From: Escherichia phage phiG7
Sequence record: OQ791410.1
Length of the DNA: 60,274 nt
Direction: 5' to 3' (one strand)
The notes beneath the pieces were generated by a model. The model ran no database searches and was not told the origin of the DNA. It was given only the letters and a program-made list of their open reading frames with translations. Below are positions 6,951 through 60,274 of this stretch, piece after piece; within the stretch, counting starts at the first letter, position 1; the number at the start of each line of letters is the position of its first letter. The translations under genes were made by a program, and so were the position numbers.

Positions 6951-7249
6951 TGCGTGTATTAAGTCAGGTTGTGCATACTAAAGAAGTTGAATACTTTGGT
7001 AATAAGCTTGATGTCCCTGAATGGGTACGGTGGTTGGCTACGGATCAAGACGGTACAGTTTACGGATTCGAGTATGAGCCAACGTTGATGGACAGTCAAA
7101 CTAAATGGACATCATACTGGGAAGATGATAACTTTTGTGAAATGGCAGAAGTTGACCTTGAAGGTATGGATTATAAACAAACATTAGTGAAGGTGAAAAG
7201 AAATGATCACTTTGGAAGAAGCGAAACAGCATCAGGAAATGATCACTGA
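6950..7249 (+). CDS. hypothetical protein
   Basis: 99-aa ORF, ATGA-type coupling to queE. Confidence 0.35.
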   Translation: MRVLSQVVHTKEVEYFGNKLDVPEWVRWLATDQDGTVYGFEYEPTLMDSQTKWTSYWEDDNFCEMAEVDLEGMDYKQTLVKVKRNDHFGRSETASGNDH

Positions 7250-7415
7250 GCTGGTAGAAAAACTTAATTCTGCAATTGCTCACGCTACTATGCAGGGCGT
7301 GCATGTAGAATTAGATATTAATCACGTTAGTACAATCGGGGCACGCAATCATCCAATTGTGATGTCAAACGTAACAATCAACCCTTGTGATATTAAAGGT
7401 GTAGAAGATGAATGA
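7203..7415 (+). CDS. hypothetical small protein (paralogue of next ORF)
   Basis: RBS AAGGTGA; sequence pattern similar to 7408..7596 product. Confidence 0.35.
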   Translation: MITLEEAKQHQEMITELVEKLNSAIAHATMQGVHVELDINHVSTIGARNHPIVMSNVTINPCDIKGVEDE

Positions 7416-7596
7416 AGAAACTGTAATTCTTATGCAGAAAATTCAACGTTTGCAAGACGAGTTGAATGACGCTATCTGTCGTGCTGCATCCAAGAACATA
7501 CATTCGGAGCTTGAGATTCATAAGCGTCAGATGACATCTGATGATGTAGTTGAACAAGTAGTCGTTAACCTTAATATTAGCCTTAAAGGTTTCTAA
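7408..7596 (+). CDS. hypothetical small protein
   Basis: 62-aa ORF overlapping previous by 8 nt. Confidence 0.35.
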   Translation: MNEETVILMQKIQRLQDELNDAICRAASKNIHSELEIHKRQMTSDDVVEQVVVNLNISLKGF

Positions 7597-7597
7597 A

Positions 7598-8320
7598 ATG
7601 AATAAATTAGATAAACTGGTATTCCCTGTAAAAAATCATAACTCCGCCGTTGTCGTCCTGTCTGGCGGCCAGGACAGCGTAACCTGTTTGGGCCTTGCCC
7701 TTAATAACTATGATAAGGTCTACGCTATTGGTTTTGCATACGGTCAACGTCATAACATTGAGCTGGCTTGTGCTAATCAAATTTGTAAAGAGCACGATGT
7801 CCCATTTGTTGTCTTTGAATTACCTGCTTTGAAACAGATTGGCAATAGCACTTTAATCGGGAACGAAGGTGATGTTAACGAACATCACGAACAGCACAAC
7901 AACCTTCCGGCAAGCTTTGTGCCAAACCGTAATGCGCTTTTCCTGACTACTGCGCACGCCTACGCGCAGAAAGTTGGCGCCAGATATGTGGTTACAGGCG
8001 TGTGTGAAACAGACTATAGCGGTTATCCAGATTGCCGCCAGCAGTTTGTAGACCTGCTTGAAGCTACATTAAACGTTGGATATGAAACTGATATTCATTT
8101 TGTTACACCGCTTATGCGTTTAAACAAAGCGGAAACGTTTGAGCTGGCGGATAAGGTTGGCTTCTTAACCACAGTAATTGAACAGTCCCATACTTGCTAT
8201 AACGGCGTCCGTCGCACTCTGCATGACTGGGGATATGGCTGCGGGGAATGCCCTGCGTGCAAACTTCGTGCTAAAGGGTACAGTGAATTTATGGATAACG
8301 CTTACAGTAAACACGTTTGA
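7598..8320 (+). CDS. queC: 7-cyano-7-deazaguanine (preQ0) synthase
   Basis: PP-loop SGGQDS motif, VTGVCETDYSGYPDC block, C-terminal zinc site CYNG...CGECPAC. Confidence 0.85.
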   Translation: MNKLDKLVFPVKNHNSAVVVLSGGQDSVTCLGLALNNYDKVYAIGFAYGQRHNIELACANQICKEHDVPFVVFELPALKQIGNSTLIGNEGDVNEHHEQHNNLPASFVPNRNALFLTTAHAYAQKVGARYVVTGVCETDYSGYPDCRQQFVDLLEATLNVGYETDIHFVTPLMRLNKAETFELADKVGFLTTVIEQSHTCYNGVRRTLHDWGYGCGECPACKLRAKGYSEFMDNAYSKHV

Positions 8321-8440
8321 TCTTACCGCGAAAACCGCACCGCTAGCGCATTGTTTAGGGTGCGGGAACCCAACTATACTACTAAAGCTTTTAAACCCAA
8401 CAACCAGCGAATACCGCTGTTAAAACTGGAGAACAAAAGT

Positions 8441-8920
8441 ATGAAATTTATCGTCGCTTATTTGGCTGCAATTACATTCGTAAACCTGGGCTTTTCCTAC
8501 CTTCCAATGCTTAACACGCCTCTTGGCGTGGTCCCGATGATGGCTTTCTTTGTAGGTATTATCTTTGTTCTGCGTGATTACGCACAGCGTAACGCTGGCA
8601 AAGGCGTCATCCCTGCAATGATTGTAGGTTGTATCCTTAGCTGGGTGTTCGGAGATCCTGCTGTTGTAGTTGCATCCGTTGCATCCTTTGCTCTTAGCGA
8701 GTTTGCGGATTATGCGGTATACACGATTACTAAGAAGCCTTTCCATCAACGCGTATTTATCAGCTCTTTGGTAGCTGTACCGATTGACTCCATTGTGTTC
8801 TTAAGTATTATAGGTATTGTTAATCCGGGATCAATGGTAGCAATGAGCTTAAGTAAGTTCACAGCATCTGCCATCCTTTGGGTCGTTTACGAAGTTCATT
8901 CACGTACAGCGAGAGCGTAA
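8441..8920 (+). CDS. small multi-pass membrane protein, possibly YhhQ/VUT-family queuosine-precursor transporter-like
   Basis: Several hydrophobic helices; embedded in deazaguanine cluster; start at MKFIV (RBS GGAG) preferred over 8351. Confidence 0.4.
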   Translation: MKFIVAYLAAITFVNLGFSYLPMLNTPLGVVPMMAFFVGIIFVLRDYAQRNAGKGVIPAMIVGCILSWVFGDPAVVVASVASFALSEFADYAVYTITKKPFHQRVFISSLVAVPIDSIVFLSIIGIVNPGSMVAMSLSKFTASAILWVVYEVHSRTARA

Positions 8921-8921
8921 A

Positions 8922-9479
8922 ATGAAAGATAATTTGAATAAAATTTGGCACCAACACGACGGTAAAGGAATGCCTATTTTTCTTCGTAATGAGAAGTTTG
9001 AAGTTCGTTTGCGCAACGGTACACACGTTAAGAATCTATTACATGGATGGGATTGGGCTATAGAAGGGCGTTCAGCTATGGATGAGGATAGCCCTTATAA
9101 AATTCAAGATATTATAGCCTGGCGATATATCGTTGCGGATGATTACGTCAAACAATCTATTGAAGCAAATTTGCCCGATTGGAGAACTGATAAAACCGCA
9201 ATTTTTACCAAATATGAACCATCTAAAATTCCCATGAATAAATATCAGAAAATTATTTATGGTAAAGATCAAAACGGCAATGTTGTAAAATGCATCGTGG
9301 ACGTGTATGATGTCTTGGAAGCTTGGAAAACAACTAACCCAGCTTTACAACATTTAATTAAAAAGGCGTTGCAGCTGGGCGAACGCGGTCATAAAAGTCT
9401 GGTAGAAGATTTGAAAGACATTATTGCGTCCGCACAGCGTGCATTAGAAATTGAACAGTCTAAAGAGGTATCAAAATGA
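8922..9479 (+). CDS. hypothetical protein
   Basis: 185-aa ORF, RBS GAGAG. Confidence 0.4.
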   Translation: MKDNLNKIWHQHDGKGMPIFLRNEKFEVRLRNGTHVKNLLHGWDWAIEGRSAMDEDSPYKIQDIIAWRYIVADDYVKQSIEANLPDWRTDKTAIFTKYEPSKIPMNKYQKIIYGKDQNGNVVKCIVDVYDVLEAWKTTNPALQHLIKKALQLGERGHKSLVEDLKDIIASAQRALEIEQSKEVSK

Positions 9480-9985
9480 GCTATACAGTAATTCGTTCAC
9501 ATGAAATTTGCGCCGGGCATCGTGTTGTAGGTCACGAAAGCAAATGTCGCCACCTCCACGGTCACAACTATAAGTTTCACTTTAAGGTTGCTCCGAAGCA
9601 TGGATGCGGAAAAGTAGTGACACGAGGAAAGCTGATTGAGGACGGTCTGGACAGCGTTGGGCGCGTGATCGACTTTAGTGTGGTTAAAACTACACTCTGC
9701 CAGTGGTTGGAAGATAATTGGGATCATAAATTTTTAGCCTTTGAAAAAGATCCTATGATTAAAGCGTTATATTACGCAACACCAAAGGACATTAATGCAA
9801 CGTTTAACGATATGTATACATTCCAACAATCCGTTGTATTTTTACCTTTCAACCCAACTGCGGAAAACCTAGCTGCATATATGGTTGAAGTAATTGGTCC
9901 GCTACTGCTTGACGAGCATGGTGTTCAACTTGTAGAATGCACCATCGAAGAAACTTCGAAATGTCACGTAAACTATAGCCTGTAA
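9476..9985 (+). CDS. queD: 6-carboxy-5,6,7,8-tetrahydropterin synthase
   Basis: CxxxHxH-type motif (CAGHRVVGHESKCRHLHGHNY) typical of QueD/PTPS. Confidence 0.75.
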   Translation: MSYTVIRSHEICAGHRVVGHESKCRHLHGHNYKFHFKVAPKHGCGKVVTRGKLIEDGLDSVGRVIDFSVVKTTLCQWLEDNWDHKFLAFEKDPMIKALYYATPKDINATFNDMYTFQQSVVFLPFNPTAENLAAYMVEVIGPLLLDEHGVQLVECTIEETSKCHVNYSL

Positions 9986-10021
9986 GTATGACCACATTAA
10001 CAAACAAGGAAACTGCAAACC

Positions 10022-10633
10022 ATGAGTGAATTTACCAAAATGATTAACGATGCGGAAATTAGACACAGCATTGAGAAGATTTTAAAGTTAATTGAAAATG
10101 GAGACACAGATACAGAGTTACGCGAAGGTCTTATCGAAACTCCGGCGCGTGTAGCAAAAGCTTATGCTACATGGTTTGGCGGTTATGGTGTCGATATTGG
10201 CGGGCTGTTTAAAACCTTTGAAGATGGTGCGGAAGGTACGGATGAAATGGTCATTGTCCGTGATATTCCTGTATACAGTCATTGTGAGCATCACATGGCC
10301 CCTATCATCGGTCGTGCTGTTGTGGGTTATGTTCCCAATGGGAAGATCGTTGGGCTTAGTAAACTGTCTCGCGTAGTTGATGCTTTTAGCCGTCGCTTGC
10401 AAGTCCAAGAGCGTCTAACTAACCAGATTGCAGACGCTATCCAGGAGCATTTAAACCCGAAAGCTGTATGCGTTTATATTGACGCCAAACATATGTGCAT
10501 GGAATCGCGCGGAGTTAAGCAGGTATGCGGCAGCTCTACTATTACCAAAGCGTTCCGGGGCGCTACAGAACTGGAGCATGGTAGCGATATTGGTAAAGAA
10601 TGGCGCCGGGAGTTCCTGGAAGCTTGTAAATAA
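10022..10633 (+). CDS. folE: GTP cyclohydrolase I
   Basis: [17 protein letters not shown] and GLSKLSR blocks characteristic of FolE. Confidence 0.8.
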
Positions 10634-15866: not shown

Positions 15867-16151
15867 ATGAGCTTAGTAGACGATTACAACAAAGGTAAAA
15901 TCGACGCGGTGGAACTTAACCGTCAGCTTAATAAACAAAATGAAGAACGCAAACAAGGTAAATACCTTACAATGATTGTTGCGCTTATCTTCACTGTTAT
16001 TGGGGGATGTGTTTACGGCTACATTAACCACACTGTTGAAGTTGGCAACGAATGTCGCGCTAAATATCCAATTCACGTTGGTGTAACTCCACAGGAAGAC
16101 ATTGATGCGCTTCTGGAACTTCAAGCCTTATGTCGTAAAGGGAAAGCATAA
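15867..16151 (+). CDS. small membrane protein
   Basis: RBS AGGAG; one predicted TM helix. Confidence 0.4.
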   Translation: MSLVDDYNKGKIDAVELNRQLNKQNEERKQGKYLTMIVALIFTVIGGCVYGYINHTVEVGNECRAKYPIHVGVTPQEDIDALLELQALCRKGKA

Positions 16152-18038: not shown

Positions 18039-19799
18039 TTATGGAAGGTTAGTTTGCTGTGAACCATTCGCTTCTTTTAGTGCAGCTAATTCCGCTTCTA
18101 GGTTCTCCACCTTTTCCATCAAAGCAAGAATTGCTTCATGGTGCAATGCCGCAGCTATACCGGAAGTGTTTACAGACTTCACATCACTCACGGATGAACC
18201 ATTGCGTAAGGTAACAGGAGAGAACTTTGTTTCGGATACTGCTTCAGGGAAATCCTTCTCTACATCCTGAGCAATAAATCCATACCCAACTGACCCATTT
18301 GTTTCCAATGTCCATTTAACGCCTTTAATGTTCCGCATCTTGGACAGTGGATCGTTTATACGCTCAATATTACTTTTAATGCGTTTGTCGGATAAACTTC
18401 TCCATTCTTGGCATTTTGCTATACCGTCCGACCCAAAAAGATAAGATGCAGCTCCTCCGCTTCCGTCATAGACGTTAAGCTGCATCCTATCTAACAACGT
18501 ACTATCGGAGCGAATACCACCAAGAATCCAGCTTCCATCATACCAATCGCCGCTTATAGTGTTTACAAAATACCCTTCTCCAACATTGGCGTAGTTTATC
18601 ATCCTTATGGCGTTTCTTTCTATGGCGCTAACTCCAACGGAGTTTAATGGCTGTGCAAGGAAGTCTTTTGCTCGTACATATGCGTCAACCTGTATTGCCC
18701 CATCACTTCTCAGTGTCCCGATCTGTGACTCTGCGTTTGGAAGGCGCAATGTACCATCCTGACCAAATGCCCATTCCTGAACACCATTTGATAACACCGC
18801 CCCTGATTCGCTGCTCAATCCATCAATCTTTCCGTAAGATTGCAAATACGCTTGATGTGTGGTAGTCGTACCTATCTTGTATTCTGATTTTACACTACCC
18901 CCTCTTACAATTGTTCCAGAAGAAGGTTTGACAGCGTCAGCGTTTATTACACTCCATGCTGTATTTGCCGCAACGAAACCACCTGACGCACGGATTACCC
19001 ACACACCGACAAAGTTTCGTGTAAGAATTTCATCAGTTGATTGTCCGTAAATTGGACTTGAAATTGAGGCATTGAAATCACAGGTGTTATAACGCCCAGC
19101 GAGCACCGCTGGGCCTGGGGGTATACCATCTCCTTTTCCTTCCGGAAATGCATTATTATTTGCGGTAAAACAACCACCTGTATGACCTAATACCTGGCCG
19201 TAAGTTTGAGCGGAATATGTGGTGAAAAAACCTGTAATATTTGGCGCAGCGGATTCGAACAGTTGCCCATTTGCAGAGGAGTTTCCACCATCACCTCGAC
19301 CATAAAGTGCGCGAATGGACCCCTCTTGAACACCGTTTTTATCTGGTACGCGGAAAGTTGTTACTCCGTCGCCAGAGGAATATCTGCCGCGTTTAAATTT
19401 ATTAGACAGCCATTCACTATCATCTATAAGCCCGACCATTTGAGCGTAATTCCATAATTCAGGCCAGTCTGCACGGTTAAGTAATTGCCCGTCCGATGTA
19501 ACCTCATAAGGTTGAACGTAAGCGCGACTATCCCGGAGATGGAAATCCCCTACCCCGTAATTCATTACCCCGTTCATTGTTGGACCAACTGTACCTGTGT
19601 TGATTAAGTTCTCAACCCAACGTTTAGTTGCTGCATCATAATCGCTAACTGGGTCCCCAGCTAATGGCGTAGACCCAATTGGTCGAACGTTTAACCACGC
19701 GGCAGCGCGGTCCGCAAGATCAGATAAATTATTACTTTTATCCATCTTTTCGTCTTTAAGTTTTGTAATGTCCTGAGGGATATTAGTATAAGTAGTCAT
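18039..19799 (-). CDS. tail fibre protein with C-terminal intramolecular chaperone (peptidase S74-like) domain
   Basis: C-terminal SDKRIKSNIE motif and coiled coil typical of self-cleaving chaperone domains. Confidence 0.6.
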   Translation of the reverse strand: MTTYTNIPQDITKLKDEKMDKSNNLSDLADRAAAWLNVRPIGSTPLAGDPVSDYDAATKRWVENLINTGTVGPTMNGVMNYGVGDFHLRDSRAYVQPYEVTSDGQLLNRADWPELWNYAQMVGLIDDSEWLSNKFKRGRYSSGDGVTTFRVPDKNGVQEGSIRALYGRGDGGNSSANGQLFESAAPNITGFFTTYSAQTYGQVLGHTGGCFTANNNAFPEGKGDGIPPGPAVLAGRYNTCDFNASISSPIYGQSTDEILTRNFVGVWVIRASGGFVAANTAWSVINADAVKPSSGTIVRGGSVKSEYKIGTTTTHQAYLQSYGKIDGLSSESGAVLSNGVQEWAFGQDGTLRLPNAESQIGTLRSDGAIQVDAYVRAKDFLAQPLNSVGVSAIERNAIRMINYANVGEGYFVNTISGDWYDGSWILGGIRSDSTLLDRMQLNVYDGSGGAASYLFGSDGIAKCQEWRSLSDKRIKSNIERINDPLSKMRNIKGVKWTLETNGSVGYGFIAQDVEKDFPEAVSETKFSPVTLRNGSSVSDVKSVNTSGIAAALHHEAILALMEKVENLEAELAALKEANGSQQTNLP

Positions 19800-19809
19800 T
19801 GATCACCTC

Positions 19810-20076
19810 TTATGCCCATTTACGTACACAGGGATTCTTAATAATGAATTGTTCAAGCTCTAACAAGTCTACATTGTTATCTATTATTCTTATGTTTATA
19901 TAATAACCCTCTTTGCCAATGACAACTGGAGTCCTACTTTTCGGGTCATCTACTATGAGGACAAAACCAATTTCATCTACAAACACTTTACCGTAGTTTG
20001 TCTTAAGCCAGTTACTATTAATGACAACATCCCGATAATGTTTTTCGTCTTTAAATTGCAAATGAATATCTTTCAT
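19810..20076 (-). CDS. hypothetical small protein between tail fibre genes
   Basis: 88-aa ORF. Confidence 0.35.
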   Translation of the reverse strand: MKDIHLQFKDEKHYRDVVINSNWLKTNYGKVFVDEIGFVLIVDDPKSRTPVVIGKEGYYINIRIIDNNVDLLELEQFIIKNPCVRKWA

Positions 20077-20077
20077 T

Positions 20078-22186
20078 TTAAACTTTCTCCCTCATTTGAC
20101 TATCCGTTAATACTCGATTCCATATTCTAAGATTACGAATATGACCATACAATTTAGTTGGATCTGAAGGTCTACCACCTATCTCCAGCAAGGAATCCGG
20201 AGATAGTCCTTCCCACGTTGAACCGGAGGATGTTACATTCTTAAAACCATTCAAAAACGATGTTACATCCCCGTTTTTTGTATGTATAAAACCCCATATG
20301 GAGGGGATGCCAACACCACTAAATGAAGCTCCGTTTGAGCCTGTAGAACGTCCAGTTTCCTTATTTAAAAAGTAAACGCTAGGCACTCTTGTAGCTATAA
20401 GCATCTCCGATACAAAAGATTCCCCTGCTATATTATATTTACTGTTATCCATTATCATCGGGTACGTATTAACTAATTCAAAGCTATCCCAGTTAATACT
20501 TACCTCAGCAAGGAATGAAATATTCGTCCCTGAGAAATTATTTCTTGCAGGTATGGTAACATAATCCAGAGCCCTTGTTGCAGGCGTGCTTCCCGTAATA
20601 ATGAAGGAGGATGCACAAAAACCCTTTTCAAATTGCGGAGTACAAAATGATATTGTATCCCCAACTTGCAAGTTATCCCCGTTAGAGCCGCGAGCATAGT
20701 TAATACTCCCAATCATGGCACCTGCAATAGCAGAAAATTTACATGTTATTTCAACTTTCAGCCATCCATTATCTTCTTTGATGATTCTGTGTGTTACAGT
20801 TCCTCTAGCTTCAAGTTTAGATGTCACCTCCCCTGTGTCGCACGACACTATAGATCTTACAACAAGAATAAGGGCATTATCTTCTCCTAACGCATAGAAT
20901 TGAGGAATTATGGAAATATTAGTTGCTTTCACTCTAATAGATAAGGTTGCGTATTCGTTCTGTTCACAATATATGTTGTTATTGTATTCGCAATAAAATA
21001 GTGATGGTGTATCACCTTGACCGTTTTCATTTGCAGTTGCGGTAGTATATGTAAATCCATATTTATCAACGCCGTGGGTAACGTCGCTACGATACTTATC
21101 ACTATTCAATGAAGCTGGGTCATTGCTGTAAGTTATGTGGTTTGTCCTCTGGCCTTCAATCAAGAGTCCTTGCTTTTCAAATCTAGGTTCATCGATATTG
21201 GCAATGCAAAATTCACCATGTTTATTTATGTATGTTGCATTTGACGCACGCGAGAAACTAACAACCTTATCAGAAGGCATTGTAATAACATCTTCACCAA
21301 CTGTTATTTTCTTATACCCGGGCGAGTAACCTGCAATCATATCAAGCGAGTCATTAAATGGAATCCATACGTCAGGGAATGGCTGAAGATCCGGAGCCCT
21401 GTTAGCTGCAACTTCCGCACGATCTGCTTCTGCCTTTGCACGGTCCGCGTCGCCCTTAGCGCTATTTGCGCTACCAGCAGCGTTACCAGCTTGTTGTCCC
21501 GCTTCGGTAGCACTATTACTTGCTTGTGCGGCTGAAGCAGCGGCAGCGTCTTTTAGCGTGGTAGTTTCCGTTACTGCGCTGTCCTTAATACCCTGTGTGT
21601 CTGTTTTTAACTGCTCAACATCAGATTTTAGACCTTGAATTGTGGTCACAGCTTGTGATGCAGTATTAGCGGAACCAGCAGCGCCAGCCTGTGCTTGTTT
21701 AGCAGCGTCTTCGCTAGCTTTAGCATCATTTTTATAGACAAGTGCATCCGAAGCAGATTGAGCAGCCGAAGCCTTACTATTGCGAGCGTCCGTAGCATCT
21801 GCGTTTGCCGCCGCAGCAGAGCGACCAGCTTGCAAAGCATATTCTTCAGAGTTAGCTACAAGTTGTTGGACTTGTTTAATAACGTTCGGAGTTAATTCTT
21901 CTGGTGCCCAGTTAATTAAATAACCGTTCAGCGAACCTTCAGGGCTGTCGGAATAAATGACGATCTCACCAGCTTTATAAGGCTCAAGACCCTGCGGCCC
22001 AATAATTACTTTGTAATGCCCTGCTTGTACAGTTACATTATAAGCACCTTCACCATCTGTACGAAATACAGCCTCGCTACCATTAAGAACGGTAATTGTG
22101 TTCCCTTTTGCTAAAAGGGCAACAGTAGCGTTAACAATCGGTTTATTTAAACCATCTGTCAAAATACCATATAAACGAGTTGCCAT
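20078..22186 (-). CDS. side tail fibre protein with Ala-rich central region and LamG-like C-terminal domain
   Basis: Start at MATRLYG with RBS AGAGG; Ala-rich region; C-terminal LRIWNRVLTDSQM resembles LamG/ConA-like domain end. Confidence 0.5.
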   Translation of the reverse strand: MATRLYGILTDGLNKPIVNATVALLAKGNTITVLNGSEAVFRTDGEGAYNVTVQAGHYKVIIGPQGLEPYKAGEIVIYSDSPEGSLNGYLINWAPEELTPNVIKQVQQLVANSEEYALQAGRSAAAANADATDARNSKASAAQSASDALVYKNDAKASEDAAKQAQAGAAGSANTASQAVTTIQGLKSDVEQLKTDTQGIKDSAVTETTTLKDAAAASAAQASNSATEAGQQAGNAAGSANSAKGDADRAKAEADRAEVAANRAPDLQPFPDVWIPFNDSLDMIAGYSPGYKKITVGEDVITMPSDKVVSFSRASNATYINKHGEFCIANIDEPRFEKQGLLIEGQRTNHITYSNDPASLNSDKYRSDVTHGVDKYGFTYTTATANENGQGDTPSLFYCEYNNNIYCEQNEYATLSIRVKATNISIIPQFYALGEDNALILVVRSIVSCDTGEVTSKLEARGTVTHRIIKEDNGWLKVEITCKFSAIAGAMIGSINYARGSNGDNLQVGDTISFCTPQFEKGFCASSFIITGSTPATRALDYVTIPARNNFSGTNISFLAEVSINWDSFELVNTYPMIMDNSKYNIAGESFVSEMLIATRVPSVYFLNKETGRSTGSNGASFSGVGIPSIWGFIHTKNGDVTSFLNGFKNVTSSGSTWEGLSPDSLLEIGGRPSDPTKLYGHIRNLRIWNRVLTDSQMREKV

Positions 22187-22310
22187 TTTTACCTCTTGTT
22201 TCGCAGAGTTGATCAATTAATGGATGCACTATGGCATACAAATATGGTAAATTAAATTAGAATATAAAACAATATTGTCTACCATCTTTAACCACATTGT
22301 TGGAGTAATT

Positions 22311-23276
22311 ATGCCAGAGGGTATTTATATAAACTACAATGACGGCAGACCTGCAATGCAAATAACAGCAGGATTACGCGCTCCGTCTTTCTGCGCCAAC
22401 TTCAATCAACGCTGTCAATCCGATAAGACGCTAACCATCAATACACCTCTGACGCCAGGATCGCAGCTTGTCGTTATTATGACTAACCCAGTTGAAGTAC
22501 TGGAAGTATTTGATCAGACGCTAGTTATCCCCGATCCAATGTATGTAACGTCCGTAACCCGAAACGGGGACGGTGGAGTTACGTTGCGAGGTGCGGACGG
22601 ACTGGGTGCCTATAGGGGACTGCCGCAATGGGCAGGGGTGATTATGGAACTGCTACCTGTAGGAACGCGAAACGAGGGTCTATTTGCGGCTAACTCCACG
22701 GACTTCACAGCAATATCCAACGCAGCCTTTCTCATGACTTGTCAGTATTCCCAGTACGTATGGGTTAACGGCAGTATGCCATTACCTGTCGGTGGTGTTC
22801 CGTTTGCTCGCTGGAACGACCCTAACGTGTCAGTAGGTTTTGATGGTTCGAATATTATCGTTCGTAACGCAGCATATGGTGGAATTGATGACGTAGCGGC
22901 TTCTGTTGGAATGGAATTAGTAATATTTAACAATACTCCCCCACAGCCTGGTGATGGTATTACCATGACGAACAGCGCGGGGCAGGTTACGTTCTCCACG
23001 GTTAAGAAGCCTTTTGTATTCAACGGAACAGTAGATCTTAGCGCAGGCTGGCAAAATATTGGTAACAGCTTAATACAACTTGCATACACAGGCACGCTTA
23101 TTGAGAACAACGGAGGTTATAATCATATTCGCATGAACGGGATTCGCATGGCAGATAATGTGGTAGGTGCTGCAAGAAACCGCGTGGTAGGCAACTACTC
23201 GCGACAACAATTCCAAATGCCCGGTCGTAACGTGGTGATCTCAACACCGCTCATAGCTATACCAAATATGTATTAA
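22311..23276 (+). CDS. hypothetical protein on the opposite strand inside the tail module
   Basis: 321-aa ORF, RBS GGAG, AT-rich upstream region, terminator directly downstream. Confidence 0.45.
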   Translation: MPEGIYINYNDGRPAMQITAGLRAPSFCANFNQRCQSDKTLTINTPLTPGSQLVVIMTNPVEVLEVFDQTLVIPDPMYVTSVTRNGDGGVTLRGADGLGAYRGLPQWAGVIMELLPVGTRNEGLFAANSTDFTAISNAAFLMTCQYSQYVWVNGSMPLPVGGVPFARWNDPNVSVGFDGSNIIVRNAAYGGIDDVAASVGMELVIFNNTPPQPGDGITMTNSAGQVTFSTVKKPFVFNGTVDLSAGWQNIGNSLIQLAYTGTLIENNGGYNHIRMNGIRMADNVVGAARNRVVGNYSRQQFQMPGRNVVISTPLIAIPNMY

Positions 23277-23277
23277 T

Positions 23278-23299
23278 AAACGGGGCATGGGCCCCGTTT
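23278..23299. terminator. bidirectional terminator
   Basis: AAACGGGGC-ATGG-GCCCCGTTT. Confidence 0.65.
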
Positions 23300-23309
23300 G
23301 AATGTTTAA

Positions 23310-25961
23310 TTACCAGCGTCCTACTATGACAACACCACCGCCGGATAACGGAACGCGAATACCGTTACTATCAATTGTAATACCTCCATTTCCGTTGAAA
23401 CCAAATTGACCAGCGTTAGCGACGACCGTCCCTCTGACGGTAACGTTATTAAATACGCAATAACCGTCTTTTGTAATTGCCCAACCTTGATCGTTACCAT
23501 TCCAGTTATTGGACTGAATAACATTACCAATCTTGGCATTGGTGATTGAGCCATTCTCAATAAAGGCTTCTTGTAAGAAACTTTGACCGTTTTTAATAGC
23601 AAAAGCAAGCTGTGCTGCTCCAGCTACAGGATTATAAATAGCAAAGTTGTCCGCACTCACCATGAAGTAAGACTGGAATTGTCCTCCGCTACCTTCAATA
23701 CCTAACTGCATACCTGCAACGTATTTGTTACCATTATTGTCTATTTGAACCTTTTGGCCCCATTGAGCGGAAAGTTTGCCGTTAAGGTCTGCTAGTGCCT
23801 GTGACTGTTCTTGCACGGTGACAACAACATCACTCACTCTGGTCTGAACAGAATCTATCTTTGTAGCCTGTCCTTCAACTACTTTGGACAATTCCGTTAC
23901 ACCGTCATCAACCTTTTGCACAGTCTCCATGAGGTTTTTGAAAGTCTCAGTTTCTTGAAACTCTTTATCCATGATTTCTATAATCTGTGCGGTTTCTGCC
24001 CATACACGAGCTTCAACTTCCACAAACGCGGACGAGCCAAAGGCGTTGATTGTTCTTATATACCAGTAATAAGTGTGGTCATTGAGTAAGTTATTTTTCT
24101 GCCATATAGTTCCCATACCTTCACGGGTAGCATCACGCTCGACAACATCTGTATTAGCAGATGGCAGTTTTGTTTCACCAGATGTCCAGAAATCAAATTG
24201 TGTGCTAACACTAGTCAGCTCTGCAATCTTTGGTATAAGAGTTAAAGAAAAATAACCGTTCTGTATCTCAACAGATGAAGGTGGCGGTGGAGCTTGAATA
24301 TTAAACTCCAGATAAGCTTCTGGTGATATTGCACCGCTGTGAGATACAGCTTGAACGTGTGCGGTATACGCCCCACGCAGCAACCCAGTAACGCGGACGC
24401 TTTGGCCAGGGACTTGTGCGGTCCAAATAGTAACGCCTCCCTGTCGCACAGCTACGCGGTTATATGCGACTTGCCCCATGTTTGTCCAGGATAATACCCC
24501 CTGTACCACATCACTGATTTGCAATATCTGGTATTGAAGATTTTGAGGTTGAGCAACACCACCACTTGGCAAGTCTACAAGATCCGGTCTGTCCATAGGT
24601 TTACCAATTGCATCGTCCCACATTTCCAGGAAATCTTGACGTAATGTAAGGTTAACACCACCTTTAGGGTTAAAAGACCATTTGGTAACGCGCATTTCAA
24701 CATTCTTCATGCCAATCTGCGTAATGGTAACTTTTACATACATTCCTGGACGGAACTTATAACCCTTCATGTTACAAGGGATTTCAATTGTACGTCCAAC
24801 ACGTTTACGACGTAGAATAATATTAGACAAACGTTGTGCCTGATATTCACTAGTTACAAAACGAAAATCCATGTCCTGAGTTATTTCCCCGCCATCCTTT
24901 TCCACCCATTCCTTAACCACAACTGGGGGGAAGTCTGCTTCAACGTAGTTCTGCTTCGGATCAATAAATGTCCCTGTGATGGTGTTTGTGCGCTCCTTAT
25001 AAGAAGTCTCTGGAACAATCTTAATATCCCCAGCAATACAACTTTCGTCCAGCGTCATTGTTGCTGGACCGTAATATGCGCCAACCAGAAGACCGTGTTT
25101 ACCCGCCACATACGTTAGCTCGCCACCACAAGCTTGCAACATAGCATCCAGAATTTTGGAGGGGGCTTCATCTACTTCAAATTCACCGTTAATTTTATAA
25201 CGGCGCTCTGTAGAACCATCAGCGTTATTGACGTATTCATCACAGATGTTAGCAGCTTCTTTGAACTGGTCCCAGTTAATATCTTCATCTTTTCGCTTTA
25301 AATACGTGCGGAAGTAATCAAGTATTACTAAAGCTGCATTATCGCTAAATATGGTATAGCCAGAACGAGGATCATATACACGGCGTCCTCTTTTAAGAAG
25401 CTTAATGTTTGGCAAACCAGAAGGGAATTTTTCTGCATTAAATTTAAAGCTAATGCGAAGCCATGCAATCCCTTTCCCAATCATATCCTCTTTCCAGGAA
25501 GGGCAATTGCTTAACATGAATGGATCTACAGTCTGACGGTCGTTATGAAATTCCCAAGTAACATACTGTTCGAAAGTCTGTACAAGATCATCCCCAAGCC
25601 AAATATCACCAATCCCCTCCAATGGATGTGAAGCTACAACAAGCGCCATATGCAGGAGTTCGTCTTCGTCTTGATCACCAGGCTGCTCCTCGGCAAACGT
25701 CATAACACCGGAAGCAACCGTTGTCCCGTATACTACTGTTCGGGACGCTGCGGCTGCTCGTAAAACCTGCTTACGCTCTTGTTGACCTTTATAAGCATTA
25801 AAGTTCATATTAGGTGTCTTAGTTAAAAGAGCACCTGCCGCAGTTGCAGCCATACCAATAGCTAAAGCTACACCCGTAGCAATCCACCCCGCCGCAGCGG
25901 CAGCGGAAGCGCCTAAAGCTATTGCTGCTCCAATTATTGCTGGTGGCATTAGACCCTCCAA
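23310..25961 (-). CDS. central tail fibre / host-specificity protein (lambda gpJ-like)
   Basis: C-terminal region resembles lambda J by eye (GYFSLTLIP...FDFWTSGE...YYWYIRTINAFGSSAFVE vs GYFQITATP...FEFWFSEK...YYFYIRSVNTVGKSAFVE). Confidence 0.65.
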   Translation of the reverse strand: MEGLMPPAIIGAAIALGASAAAAAGWIATGVALAIGMAATAAGALLTKTPNMNFNAYKGQQERKQVLRAAAASRTVVYGTTVASGVMTFAEEQPGDQDEDELLHMALVVASHPLEGIGDIWLGDDLVQTFEQYVTWEFHNDRQTVDPFMLSNCPSWKEDMIGKGIAWLRISFKFNAEKFPSGLPNIKLLKRGRRVYDPRSGYTIFSDNAALVILDYFRTYLKRKDEDINWDQFKEAANICDEYVNNADGSTERRYKINGEFEVDEAPSKILDAMLQACGGELTYVAGKHGLLVGAYYGPATMTLDESCIAGDIKIVPETSYKERTNTITGTFIDPKQNYVEADFPPVVVKEWVEKDGGEITQDMDFRFVTSEYQAQRLSNIILRRKRVGRTIEIPCNMKGYKFRPGMYVKVTITQIGMKNVEMRVTKWSFNPKGGVNLTLRQDFLEMWDDAIGKPMDRPDLVDLPSGGVAQPQNLQYQILQISDVVQGVLSWTNMGQVAYNRVAVRQGGVTIWTAQVPGQSVRVTGLLRGAYTAHVQAVSHSGAISPEAYLEFNIQAPPPPSSVEIQNGYFSLTLIPKIAELTSVSTQFDFWTSGETKLPSANTDVVERDATREGMGTIWQKNNLLNDHTYYWYIRTINAFGSSAFVEVEARVWAETAQIIEIMDKEFQETETFKNLMETVQKVDDGVTELSKVVEGQATKIDSVQTRVSDVVVTVQEQSQALADLNGKLSAQWGQKVQIDNNGNKYVAGMQLGIEGSGGQFQSYFMVSADNFAIYNPVAGAAQLAFAIKNGQSFLQEAFIENGSITNAKIGNVIQSNNWNGNDQGWAITKDGYCVFNNVTVRGTVVANAGQFGFNGNGGITIDSNGIRVPLSGGGVVIVGRW

Positions 25962-26365
25962 ATATCCGTAATTTCGATCTTATTAAGCGGGAACGTTTCC
26001 ACACCGTTTGGGCCCATGGCCCATACATATCCCGTCCATAATATGCCAGCAGTTAAGCCTAAAGCTCCCTTAAATGTAACCACATCGCCTCTTTGCGCAT
26101 AATTTTTATCAACACGCTCACTCAGGTAAGCATCCAGCAAGGTTGGAAGATAAGCTGTTCCGACTTTTTCAATTGAAAATCGCTTGCTTCCAAGCTCTGT
26201 GCTATATTTACCTGCTATCTGATTATAAATATTTGTGTTGTATTGTGCATCAACACATTTAGCGGCAAACGTACAGCAATCGTTTTCGCCCCAAGAAAAA
26301 GGAGTCGATGCTAACTCCTTTACTGTGGTTAATAAACGTGTCTGCCATCCTGGCATTTTACTCAT
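25949..26365 (-). CDS. tail assembly protein, NlpC/P60-like (gpK-like)
   Basis: Position between minor tail protein and J-like gene; Cys-containing GENDCC block; start moved to MSKMPGW to avoid 175-bp overlap. Confidence 0.4.
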   Translation of the reverse strand: MSKMPGWQTRLLTTVKELASTPFSWGENDCCTFAAKCVDAQYNTNIYNQIAGKYSTELGSKRFSIEKVGTAYLPTLLDAYLSERVDKNYAQRGDVVTFKGALGLTAGILWTGYVWAMGPNGVETFPLNKIEITDIWRV

Positions 26366-26942
26366 ACGTGAATCCTGGCGCATCTTTTTTACTCCCCCAA
26401 AAGATTGAACGTTCAGCCATTTGCGCAACATATCTAAAGAACCGATCACCCGGATGTAAACGTTGCTGACTTTCATCCGTATAGCGATCCGGTAAACCCT
26501 GCGACCAACGCTCAAAGACATTGGCAATAACATAACTCAACGCATTCTGTTGCCCTGCTTGTAAAGCAGTGTCTGTGATAAACCCTTCAAATAATACGTT
26601 TGCACCAGTGACAACGCCTTGATCGTTCATAACCGCAAGATAGCAAATAACATTGCGACCAATAACTTCTTCGTTTAACGTTTCTCCTACAAGACTCATA
26701 TCCAGACCGCTAAGTGCCATGGACATAGTGCTTGAGCTTGTGCTGTTTTCTTCTGTAACCGATCCAACATCCCCTAGAGTGCCTACACCAAGAAAAGTCT
26801 GACCATTGATAATAACAGTTCCTGTTCCAGTATGAACGCGGGTTATACCGGAAGGGAAGTCTATTTCCGCTGCCAACACTAGCGCAACGTTTGGTTGCTC
26901 CATTGCGCTAAGAAGGCTGTCGCTAAACGGACTGAATAACAT
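26358..26942 (-). CDS. minor tail protein
   Basis: Position in tail module between tape measure and J-like genes. Confidence 0.4.
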   Translation of the reverse strand: MLFSPFSDSLLSAMEQPNVALVLAAEIDFPSGITRVHTGTGTVIINGQTFLGVGTLGDVGSVTEENSTSSSTMSMALSGLDMSLVGETLNEEVIGRNVICYLAVMNDQGVVTGANVLFEGFITDTALQAGQQNALSYVIANVFERWSQGLPDRYTDESQQRLHPGDRFFRYVAQMAERSIFWGSKKDAPGFTYE

Positions 26943-27526
26943 TAAAATGCCTCCGAGAATTTTAAAGTAAAGGAGTTATTAAAAGCAGGCTGACGTTTAA
27001 CTCCATTTGTGTTTTCGGCTAAACGGAAAGATCCTTGTGGTTTCTGAGTTTCAATCTTTGCACCGTTTGGAGGGATGCTTCTTAACATCGGGGCAATATT
27101 TAAAATCACGTTACCAGAAGAATCACTCCAAGCATCTTCTGTTATTAATTTTAATTCATTGTTCACTGCGATGTAGTCCCCTTCCCATAATACCTTACGG
27201 TCAGGAGTCCAGCCCTTAGTTGACAAAGTTGTCCCAGTGTTATTTGCCCCATTAACCACAGGTGATCCCATTGGAGGTCGACCCCAGCGACCAAAATCCT
27301 GAAGCATAATCCGACCAGCTTTACCATCAAGTTTGGCTAACGTTGATTCAAGCTTTCTAGACTGCCAATCATTTAAATTGCTGAATGTTAGCGTAGCTTC
27401 CCATCGCGATCCAGGATAGGACACAGTTTGGGAAGCCCCATTGAAGGGGCTTGTAAATTCTACAGCGTTTGAGACTAGATACCATTCCATTTCCGATGGT
27501 CTAAGCTCTTCGGGCCAAGTGAGCAT
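26942..27526 (-). CDS. minor/distal tail protein
   Basis: Position immediately downstream of tape measure gene. Confidence 0.4.
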   Translation of the reverse strand: MLTWPEELRPSEMEWYLVSNAVEFTSPFNGASQTVSYPGSRWEATLTFSNLNDWQSRKLESTLAKLDGKAGRIMLQDFGRWGRPPMGSPVVNGANNTGTTLSTKGWTPDRKVLWEGDYIAVNNELKLITEDAWSDSSGNVILNIAPMLRSIPPNGAKIETQKPQGSFRLAENTNGVKRQPAFNNSFTLKFSEAF

Positions 27527-27529
27527 ATA

Positions 27530-30500
27530 TTACCCCATTGCAGTTCTACGAATTGTTCCTCGGGATGCAAAGTCAGTAAGAACTTTATTATATCCCTGCT
27601 CCGCACCATCACGAGCTGCTTGCTGCATGGCTTGCGTGAGCGCAGCATCGCCATTTCCTTGCACCGTGATATACTGAACAATGCTAACACCACCGGACAT
27701 ATTCACGCCACCTTGTTGTGAAGATTGACTATCCAGGAAGCGGTTTAACTTGTCATTAGACGGGGCATTAAGTACACGTTCACCTTTATCCAATAACCAT
27801 GTACCTTCGCGCGGAACATTATCAATACCGTCATGCGCCATACCAGCGATTGCTAAGCCACCCACAGTAGCAGCAGACGCATAACCCATAGCTTTCACTA
27901 TACCAGCCATAGCTGCGCCCATTGTAGCACCGCCTTGCTGTGTACCCCACGCAAGCGCCGCTGATGCCGCTGTCTCCGTGTTAGCAAGGATTGATGGGAT
28001 TTGCATTGCTTTCTGTGCGGCAAACATTGCCTTATAAATAAAGTTCTGTTTACTAACACCTTCTTCCAGCCCTGACAGTATAATACCCAACGATTCCTGA
28101 GAAAAGGATATCATTCGGTTCATAAGAACTTTATCCAGATTTTCCCTTTCCATGCTCGCTTTCTTCAAGACTTGGGTTTTAGCATCTTCGTAAAGCTGAT
28201 AGTAAGCTAGATCATCGGCTCGTTGTTTTGCATTAAGCTCTGCAATCTTTGTATTTTGCTCGTACGCGATTTTTTCATAGTCTGTCATACCTTCATCTAA
28301 CAGACCCTGAGCAAACTTACGATTCTTCTTACGCTCGTCCAGTTTCTTTTGAGCTTCTTCTGCATCGTAAATTGCAGCAGCAAGACTAACGACTTCTGCT
28401 TTTTCCGCAGCCGTTGCAGACGCATTGAGCTTATTAAGTGCCACCGCTTGCGCTTTCGCTTTGGCGTTTTCCTTAACCCCCGTGGTTACTTCGTTAAGCT
28501 TGTTTCGTAAATCGTCAATAACCTTAGCGTTTTGTTGATCCGCCTTAATAGCGTCTTTTGTAGCTTTAGTCCGGTTTCTCTCTGCTTCTTCAAGATCATA
28601 GTTTTTGCCAAGAGCTTGGGCTAAATCTTGAGCATATTTAACAAGCTCTTTAGCGGATTCGCTTGTTGCCTCTGAGCTAACGTCCTGACCCATAGCTACT
28701 TTGCGAATAAGACTTCCGTATGTATCCGCATCCTTGCCCAGCGTCTGATACAGTCCACTAAGGATTGCAGCTTGGCGAGCATTGCCAGCACCCTTAACCG
28801 TGTTAACATCAATCTCACGGTTAACGTCCCCGAGTTGACCTTTAAAGCGATCCAATACTTTTTCGTCAATTAACGGACCGGATTTAATGCTAAGGACAGC
28901 CTTCATATCCGCAGCAAGCTGACGCGCTAGAGGGATTATTTTCTCTATAGCGGGGCTTGTCATTTCAAGCACATTGTTATATCGACGTTGTGCGTCTTCC
29001 GCGCGTTCAGCAGCTAGCTTGACGTTATCCGTAGCAATCTGTAAGTTCTTTTCCGCACTAGCAGTATCACGACCGGACGCAGCACGGCGTTTTAATTGTG
29101 CTTCATAGAACTTCTGTGTTTCTGTAGCAGATTTTAAAGCGGTCTGTTCCCGCTTCATTTGCTCTTCAAGTTCAGGAAGAATTGCTCTAGCTTTGACCGC
29201 GTTAGCTGCCAACTGAGCTTCAGTCATTTGCATCAGTTTTTCGCGTACACTGTCAACACTATCTGCAAATTGATTATTTTCAGCACGACCTGCTTCCAGC
29301 GACGCTTTATAGGAGTAAATTGCACCCGCTGCCAGCATTGCTACACCAACAGGACCGCCAATTAACCCCATAGCACCGCGCAGCACGCTCATTGCTGTAG
29401 CTGCCCGGCTTGCGGCTGGTACAGTTGCATTAAGAGCAGCATTGAGCGCTTGCCGCGCTTGTACGTCCGCCATAATTGCCGCAGAGTGAGCACGGGTAGC
29501 ATTGATAAGCGCAAGGCGAGCACCCGCTTCCGCTGCCGTACCCTTAGCAACCGCTAACGCACCGCGTGCAACCTGCAAAGATGCAAGGGAAGCAGCACGG
29601 TCCGCAGCCGCTTTTTGTGCAGTAACGCCAATGGAGCTTTGCATCACCGCCGTAGTTGCCGCAGTTTGTGCAGCTTCCATCTGAGATGCTTTTGCAGCAG
29701 CTATAGACGCTTTAGTCTTAGCAAGCATTGCCGTAATGATACGGGCGGTGATCACTGTGGCTAAAGCTGAACCAACCGTTACAACCGTTCCTAAGTTTTC
29801 GGATAATGCAACAAACGTCTGTCCCAATGCAGCGACCGCACCTTGAGTCTTTTGGGATTCGCCCATAAACTTAGTCAGGTTGTTTGTTGCAACTGTCCAT
29901 TGCTGGTTGAACGTTGGCATAGTGCGGCTAAATTCTTTATCAATTGTATCCGCAGCACCAGACAACGATTTGATAACCACATCTGATGTTAACTTTCCGC
30001 TGTACGCCAGCTCACGCAATTGTCCAATGGTAACGCCTAACGAATCGGACATGATTTGAGTTAAGCGCGGTGCCTGTTCTGCAACAGATCGGAATTCATC
30101 CCCGCGCAAAACACCGGATGCCATCGCTTGCGAAAACTGAATAAGAGCAGCACTTGCTTCATGGGATGTTGCACCGGAAACAATCATTGCTTTGTTAATT
30201 GTTTCCGTGATACGTCCAAGCTCCATACCAGTCATACCAGTATTCTTCATCGCACGCTGGAGACGGGAGTACAGAGTTGCAGTCGCTTCCAAGCTTGTAC
30301 GTGACCGCTGGGCAATATCAAACACGCGTTGCTGCGCATCCGCAACGGTTTCATTACCCGTACGAGCCAGTTCAAGTTTGTTGGTGAGGATAGTCCAGGA
30401 GTCCGATAGCGAAATAACACGGCTAATAGTGTCAACGCTAATCATTCCTACAATTGCAGCATCCAAACGACTTGTGACAGTTGCAAGTTCGTTAGATGTG

Positions 30501-30646
30501 TTAGACAATGTTTTATAGCTGGAGGTAACACGTTGAGCAGACCGCTCCGCTGTGTCACCTGTACGCGCTAAGTTCCGCAACATGGAGTCCGCGGTACTAA
30601 TCCCTCTCGCGTCAACTCTGATTACTAGCGAAGCGGTTTCGGCCAT
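27530..30646 (-). CDS. tail tape measure protein
   Basis: 1038 aa, Ala/coiled-coil rich, directly downstream of G/GT chaperone genes. Confidence 0.8.
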   Translation of the reverse strand: MAETASLVIRVDARGISTADSMLRNLARTGDTAERSAQRVTSSYKTLSNTSNELATVTSRLDAAIVGMISVDTISRVISLSDSWTILTNKLELARTGNETVADAQQRVFDIAQRSRTSLEATATLYSRLQRAMKNTGMTGMELGRITETINKAMIVSGATSHEASAALIQFSQAMASGVLRGDEFRSVAEQAPRLTQIMSDSLGVTIGQLRELAYSGKLTSDVVIKSLSGAADTIDKEFSRTMPTFNQQWTVATNNLTKFMGESQKTQGAVAALGQTFVALSENLGTVVTVGSALATVITARIITAMLAKTKASIAAAKASQMEAAQTAATTAVMQSSIGVTAQKAAADRAASLASLQVARGALAVAKGTAAEAGARLALINATRAHSAAIMADVQARQALNAALNATVPAASRAATAMSVLRGAMGLIGGPVGVAMLAAGAIYSYKASLEAGRAENNQFADSVDSVREKLMQMTEAQLAANAVKARAILPELEEQMKREQTALKSATETQKFYEAQLKRRAASGRDTASAEKNLQIATDNVKLAAERAEDAQRRYNNVLEMTSPAIEKIIPLARQLAADMKAVLSIKSGPLIDEKVLDRFKGQLGDVNREIDVNTVKGAGNARQAAILSGLYQTLGKDADTYGSLIRKVAMGQDVSSEATSESAKELVKYAQDLAQALGKNYDLEEAERNRTKATKDAIKADQQNAKVIDDLRNKLNEVTTGVKENAKAKAQAVALNKLNASATAAEKAEVVSLAAAIYDAEEAQKKLDERKKNRKFAQGLLDEGMTDYEKIAYEQNTKIAELNAKQRADDLAYYQLYEDAKTQVLKKASMERENLDKVLMNRMISFSQESLGIILSGLEEGVSKQNFIYKAMFAAQKAMQIPSILANTETAASAALAWGTQQGGATMGAAMAGIVKAMGYASAATVGGLAIAGMAHDGIDNVPREGTWLLDKGERVLNAPSNDKLNRFLDSQSSQQGGVNMSGGVSIVQYITVQGNGDAALTQAMQQAARDGAEQGYNKVLTDFASRGTIRRTAMG

Positions 30647-60208: not shown

Positions 60209-60274
60209 AAAGTAATTGAGGGTTCAAAGTATATTACGTTACAATGAGCACGAACTTAAAAGAGAGGCGTTAAA

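Follow-up and report, generated by a model that had tools for sequence, protein, structure and literature searches.

An opposite-strand gene in the tail module of Escherichia phage phiG7 very probably encodes an exchangeable receptor-binding protein of the LptD class

The tail module of Escherichia phage phiG7 raises the question of what is encoded by a single plus-strand gene that lies among tail genes which, across 18039..30646, are otherwise all on the minus strand. The whole 60,274-nucleotide stretch of record OQ791410.1, here called the window, was analysed. A preliminary description had reported a 321-aa plus-strand ORF between the side tail fibre gene and a J-like gene with minus-strand neighbours, which was confirmed, and had read it as a moron with its own promoter and terminator, whose product might exclude superinfecting phages, modify the receptor or act as an alternative receptor-binding component. 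Our results suggest that the ORF very probably encodes the terminal receptor-binding protein (RBP) of the phage, which would sit on J, bind LptD and be expressed from an inverted, separate transcription unit that forms an exchangeable cassette. This assignment was reached by sequence comparison and structure modelling, and the receptor, virion location and expression timing are predicted for this phage from homology.

The first and last 127 bases of the window are identical, indicating a closed whole-genome assembly of ~60.1 kb. The window carries the 7-deazaguanine set of the Queuovirinae (a radical-SAM QueE-like protein, QueC, a YhhQ-like transporter, QueD and FolE), and its RBP locus is 99.4% identical to that of ECP2304 and 96% identical to that of vB_EcoS_SA126VB (SA126VB), both members of Seuratvirus in the Queuovirinae. 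Judged by these features, the window is a complete Seuratvirus genome. The tail features are collected in Table 1. The J-like protein matched the Pfam families Phage_Tail_Tip, Ig_J_second and Phage-tail_3, the central tail fibre J family phrog_31 and, in the PDB, lambda J and a J-like gp24. The latter (PDB entry 23gd, "J-like tail tip protein gp24"), for which a literature search found no paper, matched the C terminus of J. Since the phage_tail_N domain covers residues 11-144 of the TTG-initiated reading of the lateral fibre gene, this gene most likely starts at the ATG at 22186 and not at the TTG at 22216.

Table 1. Features in and around the RBP locus of the window
Feature	Position	Strand	Basis or remark
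Fibre with endosialidase-chaperone domain	18039..19799	-	
Small ORF	19810..20076	-	
Lateral (side) tail fibre protein	20078..22186 (22216 if TTG start)	-	Pfam phage_tail_N
Divergent intergenic spacer, lateral fibre (-)/RBP (+)	22187..22310	.	AT-rich; nearly invariant in 5 Queuovirinae
Ribosome-binding site GGAG	22302..22305	+	Sequence read; 5 nt ahead of ATG
Putative RBP gene (321 aa; Pfam DUF6453; Rtp44/RBP-Oekolampad family, LptD class)	22311..23276	+	Family and PDB homology
RBP N-terminal motif MPxGIxIxxNDGRPAMxITxGLRA, codons 1-25	22311..22385	+	Family-wide conservation; docking role probable
Terminator-like hairpin common to convergent RBP and J transcripts	23277..23300	both	Folding, conservation
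J last 30 codons, motif FGFNGNGGITIDSNGIRVPLSGGGVVIVGRW	23310..23402	-	J proteins paired with DUF6453 RBP; probable docking site
J-like tail tip protein, 883 aa by ORF call (homologues annotated 879 aa)	23310..25961	-	Pfam, PHROGs, PDB
Tape measure protein	27530..30646	-	

The ORF was read from an ATG at 22311 to a stop codon ending at 23276, with a product of 321 codons. The GGAG site and the AT-rich upstream region of the preliminary description were both found, and the GGAG is invariant in an alignment of five Queuovirinae. The product matched Pfam DUF6453 (PF20051) with an E value of 2e-130 (residues 4-297 of 321 on profile positions 1-290 of 291), and a homologue search recovered 116 clusters (best E 4.5e-204). 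Thus, the ORF lies far beyond chance. Its product is 99.1% identical in amino acids to the ECP2304 orthologue, and homologues at 33-56% identity are found in phages and prophages of Klebsiella, Salmonella, Citrobacter and Cronobacter. The GC content of the gene (47.6%, compared with 44.4% for the whole window) is unremarkable. Searches of the product against the PADLOC defence and NCBIfam libraries, and of positions 22000..23500 against Rfam at E <= 1, gave zero matches. A longer reading from a TTG at 22275 was unsupported, as every homologue starts with MPEGI or MGAGI, and no evidence was found for a 122-aa antisense ORF (22742..23110) as a gene. A match of Citrobacter phage HCF1 to RBP residues 1-34 was considered as an adaptor common to a different RBP and rejected; the matching stretch is a remnant that lacks annotation, and the assembly is unverified.

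The sole relative of the product in the PDB was the "Tail fiber protein" chain of 9RPT, 9RPW and 9RQI (9rpt_C, phmmer E 1.6e-162). This chain is the RBP of Oekolampad (Bas18, Dhillonvirus; gene bas18_0025), whose cryo-EM structure was solved together with the lipopolysaccharide translocon LptDE (Dunbar et al. 2025, PMC12685063). All 321 residues of the phiG7 product align with this RBP without a gap, at 75% identity. An AlphaFold2 (AF2) model of the phiG7 product (pLDDT 86.4, pTM 0.86) was aligned to 9rpt_C by Foldseek with an E value of 8.8e-33, a TM score of 0.89 (normalised to the target) and an rmsd of 2.5 A, while no other fold in the PDB was retrieved at E <= 0.001 (runner-up E 0.08). 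Remote homology and structure prediction, which had been proposed earlier as a check, thus returned a full-length DUF6453 match and one close structural relative.

The Oekolampad RBP inserts deeply into LptD in its open state, over an interface of ~1,700 A2 formed chiefly with the loops EL3-5 and EL11, and its Gln299 hydrogen-bonds LptD Ser350; either LptD substitution D352Y or Y671N alone abolishes RBP binding and infection (PMC12685063). Gln299, the one contact residue compared, is conserved in the window's RBP. The BASEL study described "bona fide RBP loci" beside the gpJ homologues of Drexlerviridae, Dhillonvirus, Nonagvirus and Seuratvirus and assigned their alleles to receptors (Maffei et al. 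2021, PMC8594841). In that study, spontaneous mutations in lptD conferred full resistance to seven phages with an LptD-type RBP module, and genetic dependence on LptD was reported for ChristophMerian and FritzHoffmann (Nonagvirus), VogelGryff (Seuratvirus), Oekolampad and the Rtp-like AugustePiccard (PMC8594841). The window's RBP is 95% identical in amino acids to that of ChristophMerian (bas19_0020), 75% to that of Oekolampad, 67% to that of FritzHoffmann, 66% to that of VogelGryff and ~42% to the Rtp44-like protein of EC3a, taken as a stand-in for the Rtp-like type. With these identities to tested phages or a stand-in, the window's RBP nests inside the tested set of LptD users. Collectively, these data suggest that the phiG7 protein binds LptDE, direct binding having been shown for the Oekolampad protein only. 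The protein is also likely to be a virion component, the support found for this membership being the annotation of the mEp021 homologue as a "virion structural protein".

The first 40 residues of the RBP are 82-100% identical among Queuovirinae, while the bodies are merely ~50-58% identical. The N-terminal motif is retained in EC3a, mEp021, the Klebsiella and Salmonella homologues and Rtp44. At the other side of the junction, the C-terminal motif of J follows the pattern ...FGFxGxxxxxIxxxGxxVxLxGGGxVxVGRW and is conserved in Oekolampad, EC3a, FritzHoffmann, Klebsiella phage Tin1 and Salmonella phage SP-016. The two motifs co-occur irrespective of gene orientation. Up to residue 853, the J proteins of KurtStettler (LamB class) and WildeMaa share 72-78% identity with the window's J, and from there on they have a different, longer C terminus; these phages have no separate RBP gene, and their opposite-strand slot holds a 77-aa lipoprotein gene only. 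Because the two motifs are conserved together and replaced jointly in KurtStettler and WildeMaa, the RBP N terminus probably docks on the C-terminal motif of J. This model fits the disorder of the tail-proximal part of the Oekolampad RBP in the cryo-EM map of the LptDE complex (PMC12685063). No tail-tip structure showing a contact between J and RBP was found, and the T1 tail-tip paper is silent on RBP attachment.

The RBP gene abuts the 3' end of J in all loci compared (10 phages and 80 IMG/VR loci). It is convergent with J across the hairpin in eight phage loci, those of the window, SA126VB, ChristophMerian, VogelGryff, FritzHoffmann, Oekolampad, EC3a and mEp021, which represent the Queuovirinae, Dhillonvirus (Oekolampad), the Drexlerviridae (EC3a) and a lambdoid phage (mEp021). 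Klebsiella phage Tin1_ER1 and Salmonella phage FSL SP-016 instead carry it downstream of J in the same direction, after a gap of 1-8 nt. Among the best 80 IMG/VR loci, 73 were co-directional with J and seven convergent; the co-directional ones are mostly isolate-genome records and probably prophages, and the gap between J and RBP in co-directional loci overall was 1-12 nt. The inverted layout is one of two layouts in the RBP family. Given the co-directional position after J in Tin1_ER1, SP-016 and these 73 loci, the RBP gene belongs, by its homology and placement, to the conserved structural genes of the tail module and lies inverted in some lineages, phiG7 among them. The preliminary description had named exactly this outcome as one that would refute its moron reading.

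The elements that flank the gene were also compared. The hairpin directly after the RBP stop codon has a 10-bp stem with six GC pairs, and its folding energy is -16.3 kcal/mol on the plus strand and -15.2 on the minus strand (z about -2). The J stop codon lies 9 nt beyond it, and the distance from RBP stop to J stop is 33 nt. A hairpin is retained at this junction in five related phages, with differing loops, and is annotated as a terminator in SA126VB, EC3a and mEp021 (on both strands, or between RBP and J). The bidirectional terminator proposed earlier thus corresponds to a structure that folds on both strands and is kept in relatives. On the other side, the spacer measures 124 nt if the lateral fibre starts at its ATG, as annotated in relatives, and its part at 22217..22310 has a GC content of 26.6%, compared with 44.4% for the window. 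The spacer is presumably the site of both promoters. No sigma-70-like site scoring at least 9/12 was found on its plus strand, the best permissive matches reaching 8/12 on either strand; the sole nearby match of a standard promoter scan falls inside the RBP ORF, and the SA126VB record annotates a minus-strand promoter in this spacer. Of the promoter and terminator ascribed to the gene, therefore, the terminator-like hairpin was borne out and a recognisable promoter was not.

The position of the gene had suggested a moron, that is, a horizontally acquired accessory gene for a non-virion product that aids the host or blocks superinfection. The opposite strand, the AT-rich spacer upstream and the separate terminator fit this reading, as do the exclusion lipoprotein gene carried in the slot by sister phages and a match of the product to PHROG 1265, labelled "membrane protein" in the category "moron, auxiliary metabolic gene and host takeover". 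The same label is attached to gp23 of Sodalis phage SO-1. No experimental basis for this PHROG and RefSeq label was found, and the protein sequence and model contain no signal peptide, lipobox or hydrophobic helix and are predicted to be all-beta. The direct structural homologue is a virion RBP, the GC content is unremarkable, PADLOC gave no match, and 73 of the 80 IMG/VR loci place the gene straight after J in the tail operon. Further, the slot was filled in every relative examined, either by an RBP allele or by a lipoprotein gene together with a longer J; a slot that is never empty points to allele replacement, not insertion. The homology to a virion RBP, the conserved position after J and the never-empty slot contradict the moron reading, which we consider highly improbable. 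A role in superinfection exclusion is likewise contradicted, since the product is 321 aa long, compared with ~60-80 aa for exclusion lipoproteins of the Cor, Llp and Rtp45 types, lacks a signal peptide and lipobox, has no similarity to the exclusion lipoproteins bas18_0026 or Ec3a_39 and has no PADLOC match. Receptor modification is also contradicted, the product being by homology an LptD-class terminal RBP; for the same reason, the proposal of an alternative receptor-binding component was right about receptor binding and wrong about "alternative", as the protein would be the terminal RBP of the phage.

A location between two fibre genes would also suit a non-virion assembly factor or chaperone of the central or lateral tail fibre, as fibre chaperones are often encoded beside fibres and the VogelGryff record annotates a lateral fibre chaperone nearby. 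Against this role, which appears scarcely credible, the homologue, once purified, forms a direct and stable complex with the receptor over its 1,700 A2 interface (PMC12685063), and the mEp021 homologue is annotated as structural. The remaining alternative is closest to the LptD-binding RBP that we favour: a protein of the same fold and position whose allele, by drift, has come to recognise another receptor or the LptD of another host. RBP alleles in the slot are often swapped, with bodies down to 50-58% identity within the Queuovirinae; the family reaches Klebsiella, Salmonella, Citrobacter and Cronobacter at 33-56% identity, and three Nonagvirus phages have an RBP module without an assigned receptor (PMC8594841). 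Such drift is nonetheless improbable here, given the 95% identity to ChristophMerian, the relatives at 75, 67, 66 and ~42% that are all LptD-dependent or of LptD type, the conserved Gln299, and the isolation of the near-identical ECP2304 on E. coli.

Exchange of the RBP body was evident from VogelGryff, which has a J 99% identical to that of the window, a nearly identical spacer and 82% identity over the first 40 RBP residues, whereas the whole RBP is 66% identical. DNA similarity to FritzHoffmann and PLYYY01 ends ~200-300 nt into the query. The boundaries of recombination of the cassette probably lie in the spacer and the first 25-40 RBP codons on one side and in the hairpin and the 3' end of J on the other. 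An exchanged module that includes the last 235 residues of J, as suggested by megablast, was rejected, as protein alignment shows J to be homologous to the J proteins of KurtStettler and WildeMaa up to residue 853, with the last 30 residues different in kind.

Comparison with known systems places the locus close to described modules. One of these is that of ChristophMerian (Bas19), whose bas19_0020 shares 95% amino acid and 90% nucleotide identity with the window's gene and whose infection depends on LptD (PMC8594841). Its architecture is identical (lateral fibre on the minus strand, 116-124-nt spacer, RBP on the plus strand, hairpin and J on the minus strand, without a lipoprotein gene); it differs in belonging to Nonagvirus, compared with the Seuratvirus-like window, in a J that is 94% identical and in a lateral fibre that diverges past its 5' end. 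Oekolampad resembles the window in the length of 321 aa and fold of its RBP, in convergence with J across a hairpin, and in the RBP N-terminal and J C-terminal motifs. It differs in the lipoprotein gene bas18_0026 that lies 2 nt upstream in the same direction, where the window has none, and in its J, which measures 1148 aa compared with 883 aa and is 26% identical overall. The Rtp44/Rtp45 module of Rtp and its relatives in the Drexlerviridae (EC3a genes 38/39) shares the family (~42% identity) and the inverted cassette convergent with J with the window and has LptD as its assigned receptor, but an Rtp45-type lipoprotein gene always precedes it, and it adjoins recombination genes, not the lateral fibre operon.

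Two further systems are alike in working or in scaffold. T5 pb5 (oad) is a monomeric RBP at the tip of the central fibre that binds an outer-membrane beta-barrel, FhuA. The T5 pb5/Llp pair resembles the window's RBP in its working, with a disordered tail-proximal part and, in most lineages, an exclusion lipoprotein as partner; Foldseek detected no kinship of fold, and no sequence kinship was detected, between pb5 and the window's RBP. The J proteins with a built-in receptor domain, namely lambda J and KurtStettler bas22_0020 (LamB class), share the tail-tip scaffold, the window's J being 78% identical to KurtStettler J over residues 5-853. In these, J has its own receptor-binding C terminus and no separate RBP exists, whereas the window's J ends in a short motif.

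These comparisons are consistent with a model in which an all-beta RBP of ~35 kDa would be carried, by homology, on the far end of the central tail fibre that J forms. It would most likely be attached non-covalently, with its N-terminal 25 residues on the 30-residue C-terminal motif of J. Following an initial, reversible contact of the lateral fibres with surface glycans, the RBP body would enter the extracellular mouth of open LptDE, touching EL3-5 and EL11 of LptD. This insertion would lead to irreversible adsorption and DNA ejection, a course of events shown for the 75% identical Oekolampad protein. The RBP transcription unit would begin in the AT-rich spacer that it has in common with the divergent lateral fibre operon and end at the hairpin that it has in common with the J operon, and the gene would serve as an exchangeable host-range cassette that recombines at the spacer and N-terminal codons and at the 3' end of J.

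In type and structure, and very nearly in sequence, an RBP like this one is known already, and the inverted layout has already been described for small coliphages; the known mechanism is unchanged by these results. Their value is mainly one of annotation, as the gene is listed in most of the GenBank records compared as "hypothetical protein" or "membrane protein", in PHROGs as "moron" and in Pfam as "DUF6453". Naming it as an LptD-binding RBP would make the terminal receptor predictable from sequence. The essential role and the conservation of the outer-membrane protein LptD make the phages that use it interesting for phage steering, as well as for engineering of the host range through swapped cassettes. 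Our comparison also provides probable boundaries of cassette recombination in the Queuovirinae and reveals LptD-type members without the cognate exclusion gene.

In Oekolampad, EC3a, mEp021 and five Dhillonvirus-like IMG/VR loci, a gene for a lipoprotein of 72-80 aa ends 0-2 nt before the RBP gene. Rtp45, of the same lipoprotein group, attaches to LptDE on the periplasmic side and shifts loop EL4 from its position, such that RBP binding is blocked. No ORF in the spacer upstream of the window's RBP gene fits an Rtp45-type gene, and tblastn of the Oekolampad (bas18_0026) and EC3a (Ec3a_39) lipoproteins against the whole window gave noise (best E 1.6-2.1). No lipoprotein gene was found beside the RBP gene in four other LptD-type Queuovirinae, in the region of ECP2304 that was examined, or within 5 kb in the 73 co-directional loci. 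Since no Rtp45-type homologue occurs in the whole 60 kb genome, we tentatively raise the suggestion, in which we place little confidence, that LptD-type Queuovirinae either have no receptor-level exclusion at this essential receptor or mask LptD by an undescribed, non-homologous means. Scans of the window for lipoboxes returned three spurious or internal matches and a single weak candidate for an exclusion gene. The latter, an ORF at 15909/15972..16151, has a lipobox-like IGGC and matches phrog_26834; nothing ties it to LptD. In sister Queuovirinae with LamB-type or other receptor alleles, a 77-aa lipoprotein gene occupies the same slot as the RBP gene of phiG7. The earlier guess of an exclusion function thus fits the slot, as held by these sister phages, and not the gene that fills it here.

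Comparison of the termini of the phiG7 sequence revealed 127 identical bases at both ends (positions 1-127 and 60148-60274). The window is therefore a closed assembly, either circular or terminally overlapping, that represents the complete genome (approximately 60.1 kb), and statements of absence thus hold for the whole phage.

No gene for an exclusion lipoprotein of the Rtp45/bas18_0026 type was found beside the receptor-binding protein (RBP) gene (spacer 22187-22310) or elsewhere in the whole genome. In contrast, an exclusion lipoprotein gene lies directly upstream of the RBP gene in Oekolampad, EC3a, and mEp021. ChristophMerian, FritzHoffmann, VogelGryff, and SA126VB likewise lack a gene of this type. 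The sole lipoprotein-like candidate in the phiG7 genome was a small plus-strand ORF, in which the IGGC motif closing the hydrophobic N-terminus forms a weak lipobox, and which matched a PHROG of unknown function. In the Queuovirinae KurtStettler and WildeMaa, which carry other receptor alleles, the J-like tail tip protein (J) is approximately 100 to 160 aa longer and is accompanied by a 77-aa lipoprotein gene, the product of which presumably serves these alleles as their exclusion factor.

Coordinates of features in phiG7 and in two comparison loci (opposite-strand slot, the position between the minus-strand lateral fibre and J genes)
Feature	Coordinates	Strand or position	Remarks
7-deazaguanine DNA-modification cluster	6243-10633	+	radical-SAM QueE-like protein, QueC, YhhQ/Vut_1-like transporter, QueD (PTPS), FolE
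Small ORF, 59-80 aa	15909-16151; alternative start 15972	+	hydrophobic N-terminus, then IGGC; phrog_26834
Lateral fibre ORF	20078-22216, as listed from TTG 22216	-	probable start ATG 22186
122-aa ORF, TTG start	22742-23110	-	antisense within RBP gene
194-aa ORF, first of three	25949-26533	-	carries DUF6950
194-aa ORF, second of three	26358-26942	-	
194-aa ORF, third of three	26942-27526	-	
77-aa lipoprotein gene, KurtStettler	L009 3210-3443	opposite-strand slot	lipobox LSAC/LTAC (pair with WildeMaa); phrog_12984
77-aa lipoprotein gene, WildeMaa	L010 3046-3279	opposite-strand slot	lipobox LSAC/LTAC (pair with KurtStettler); phrog_12984

When the RBP-J region of phiG7 (22311-25961) was compared with that of VogelGryff, the J proteins were 99% identical while the adjoining RBPs were only 66% identical, with conserved ends. 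Judged by these identities, the region is a clear recombination mosaic within one receptor class. In Citrobacter phage HCF1, the assembly of which carries an unverified flag, a remnant of the RBP N-terminus spanning 34 codons was detected at 82% identity (L008 3001-3102). This stretch is unannotated, is flanked by a small ORF and a long J-like gene, and may have been left behind by replacement of the cassette.

The RBP family is named "membrane protein" in PHROG 1265, which PHROGs categorizes as moron, and in several RefSeq records; Sodalis phage SO-1 gp23 also bears this label, and the Pfam name is DUF6453 (PF20051). The structure of one member, however, has been solved as that of an LptD-binding RBP, and these annotations are out of date. 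Near-identical phages were also found deposited under unlikely hosts, namely, Aeromonas phage SD04 (96.6% nucleotide identity), Acinetobacter phage NJ01, Campylobacter phage A131, and Vibrio phage Vc1. These records may represent coliphage contaminants or mislabelled hosts.

The true start of the lateral fibre gene is probably at 22186, as suggested by the Pfam N-terminal domain, which begins at residue 11 of the TTG reading, by an AAGAGG site upstream of the ATG, and by the annotation of relatives from the equivalent codon. The antisense ORF within the RBP gene had no supporting evidence as a gene. The gene content of the 7-deazaguanine cluster, in which QueC is a 240-aa protein without a Gat fusion, is consistent with dPreQ0 modification of the Seuratvirus type. 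J and the tape measure gene are separated by three ORFs (25949-27526), consecutive or overlapping, each of which is exactly 194 aa in length.
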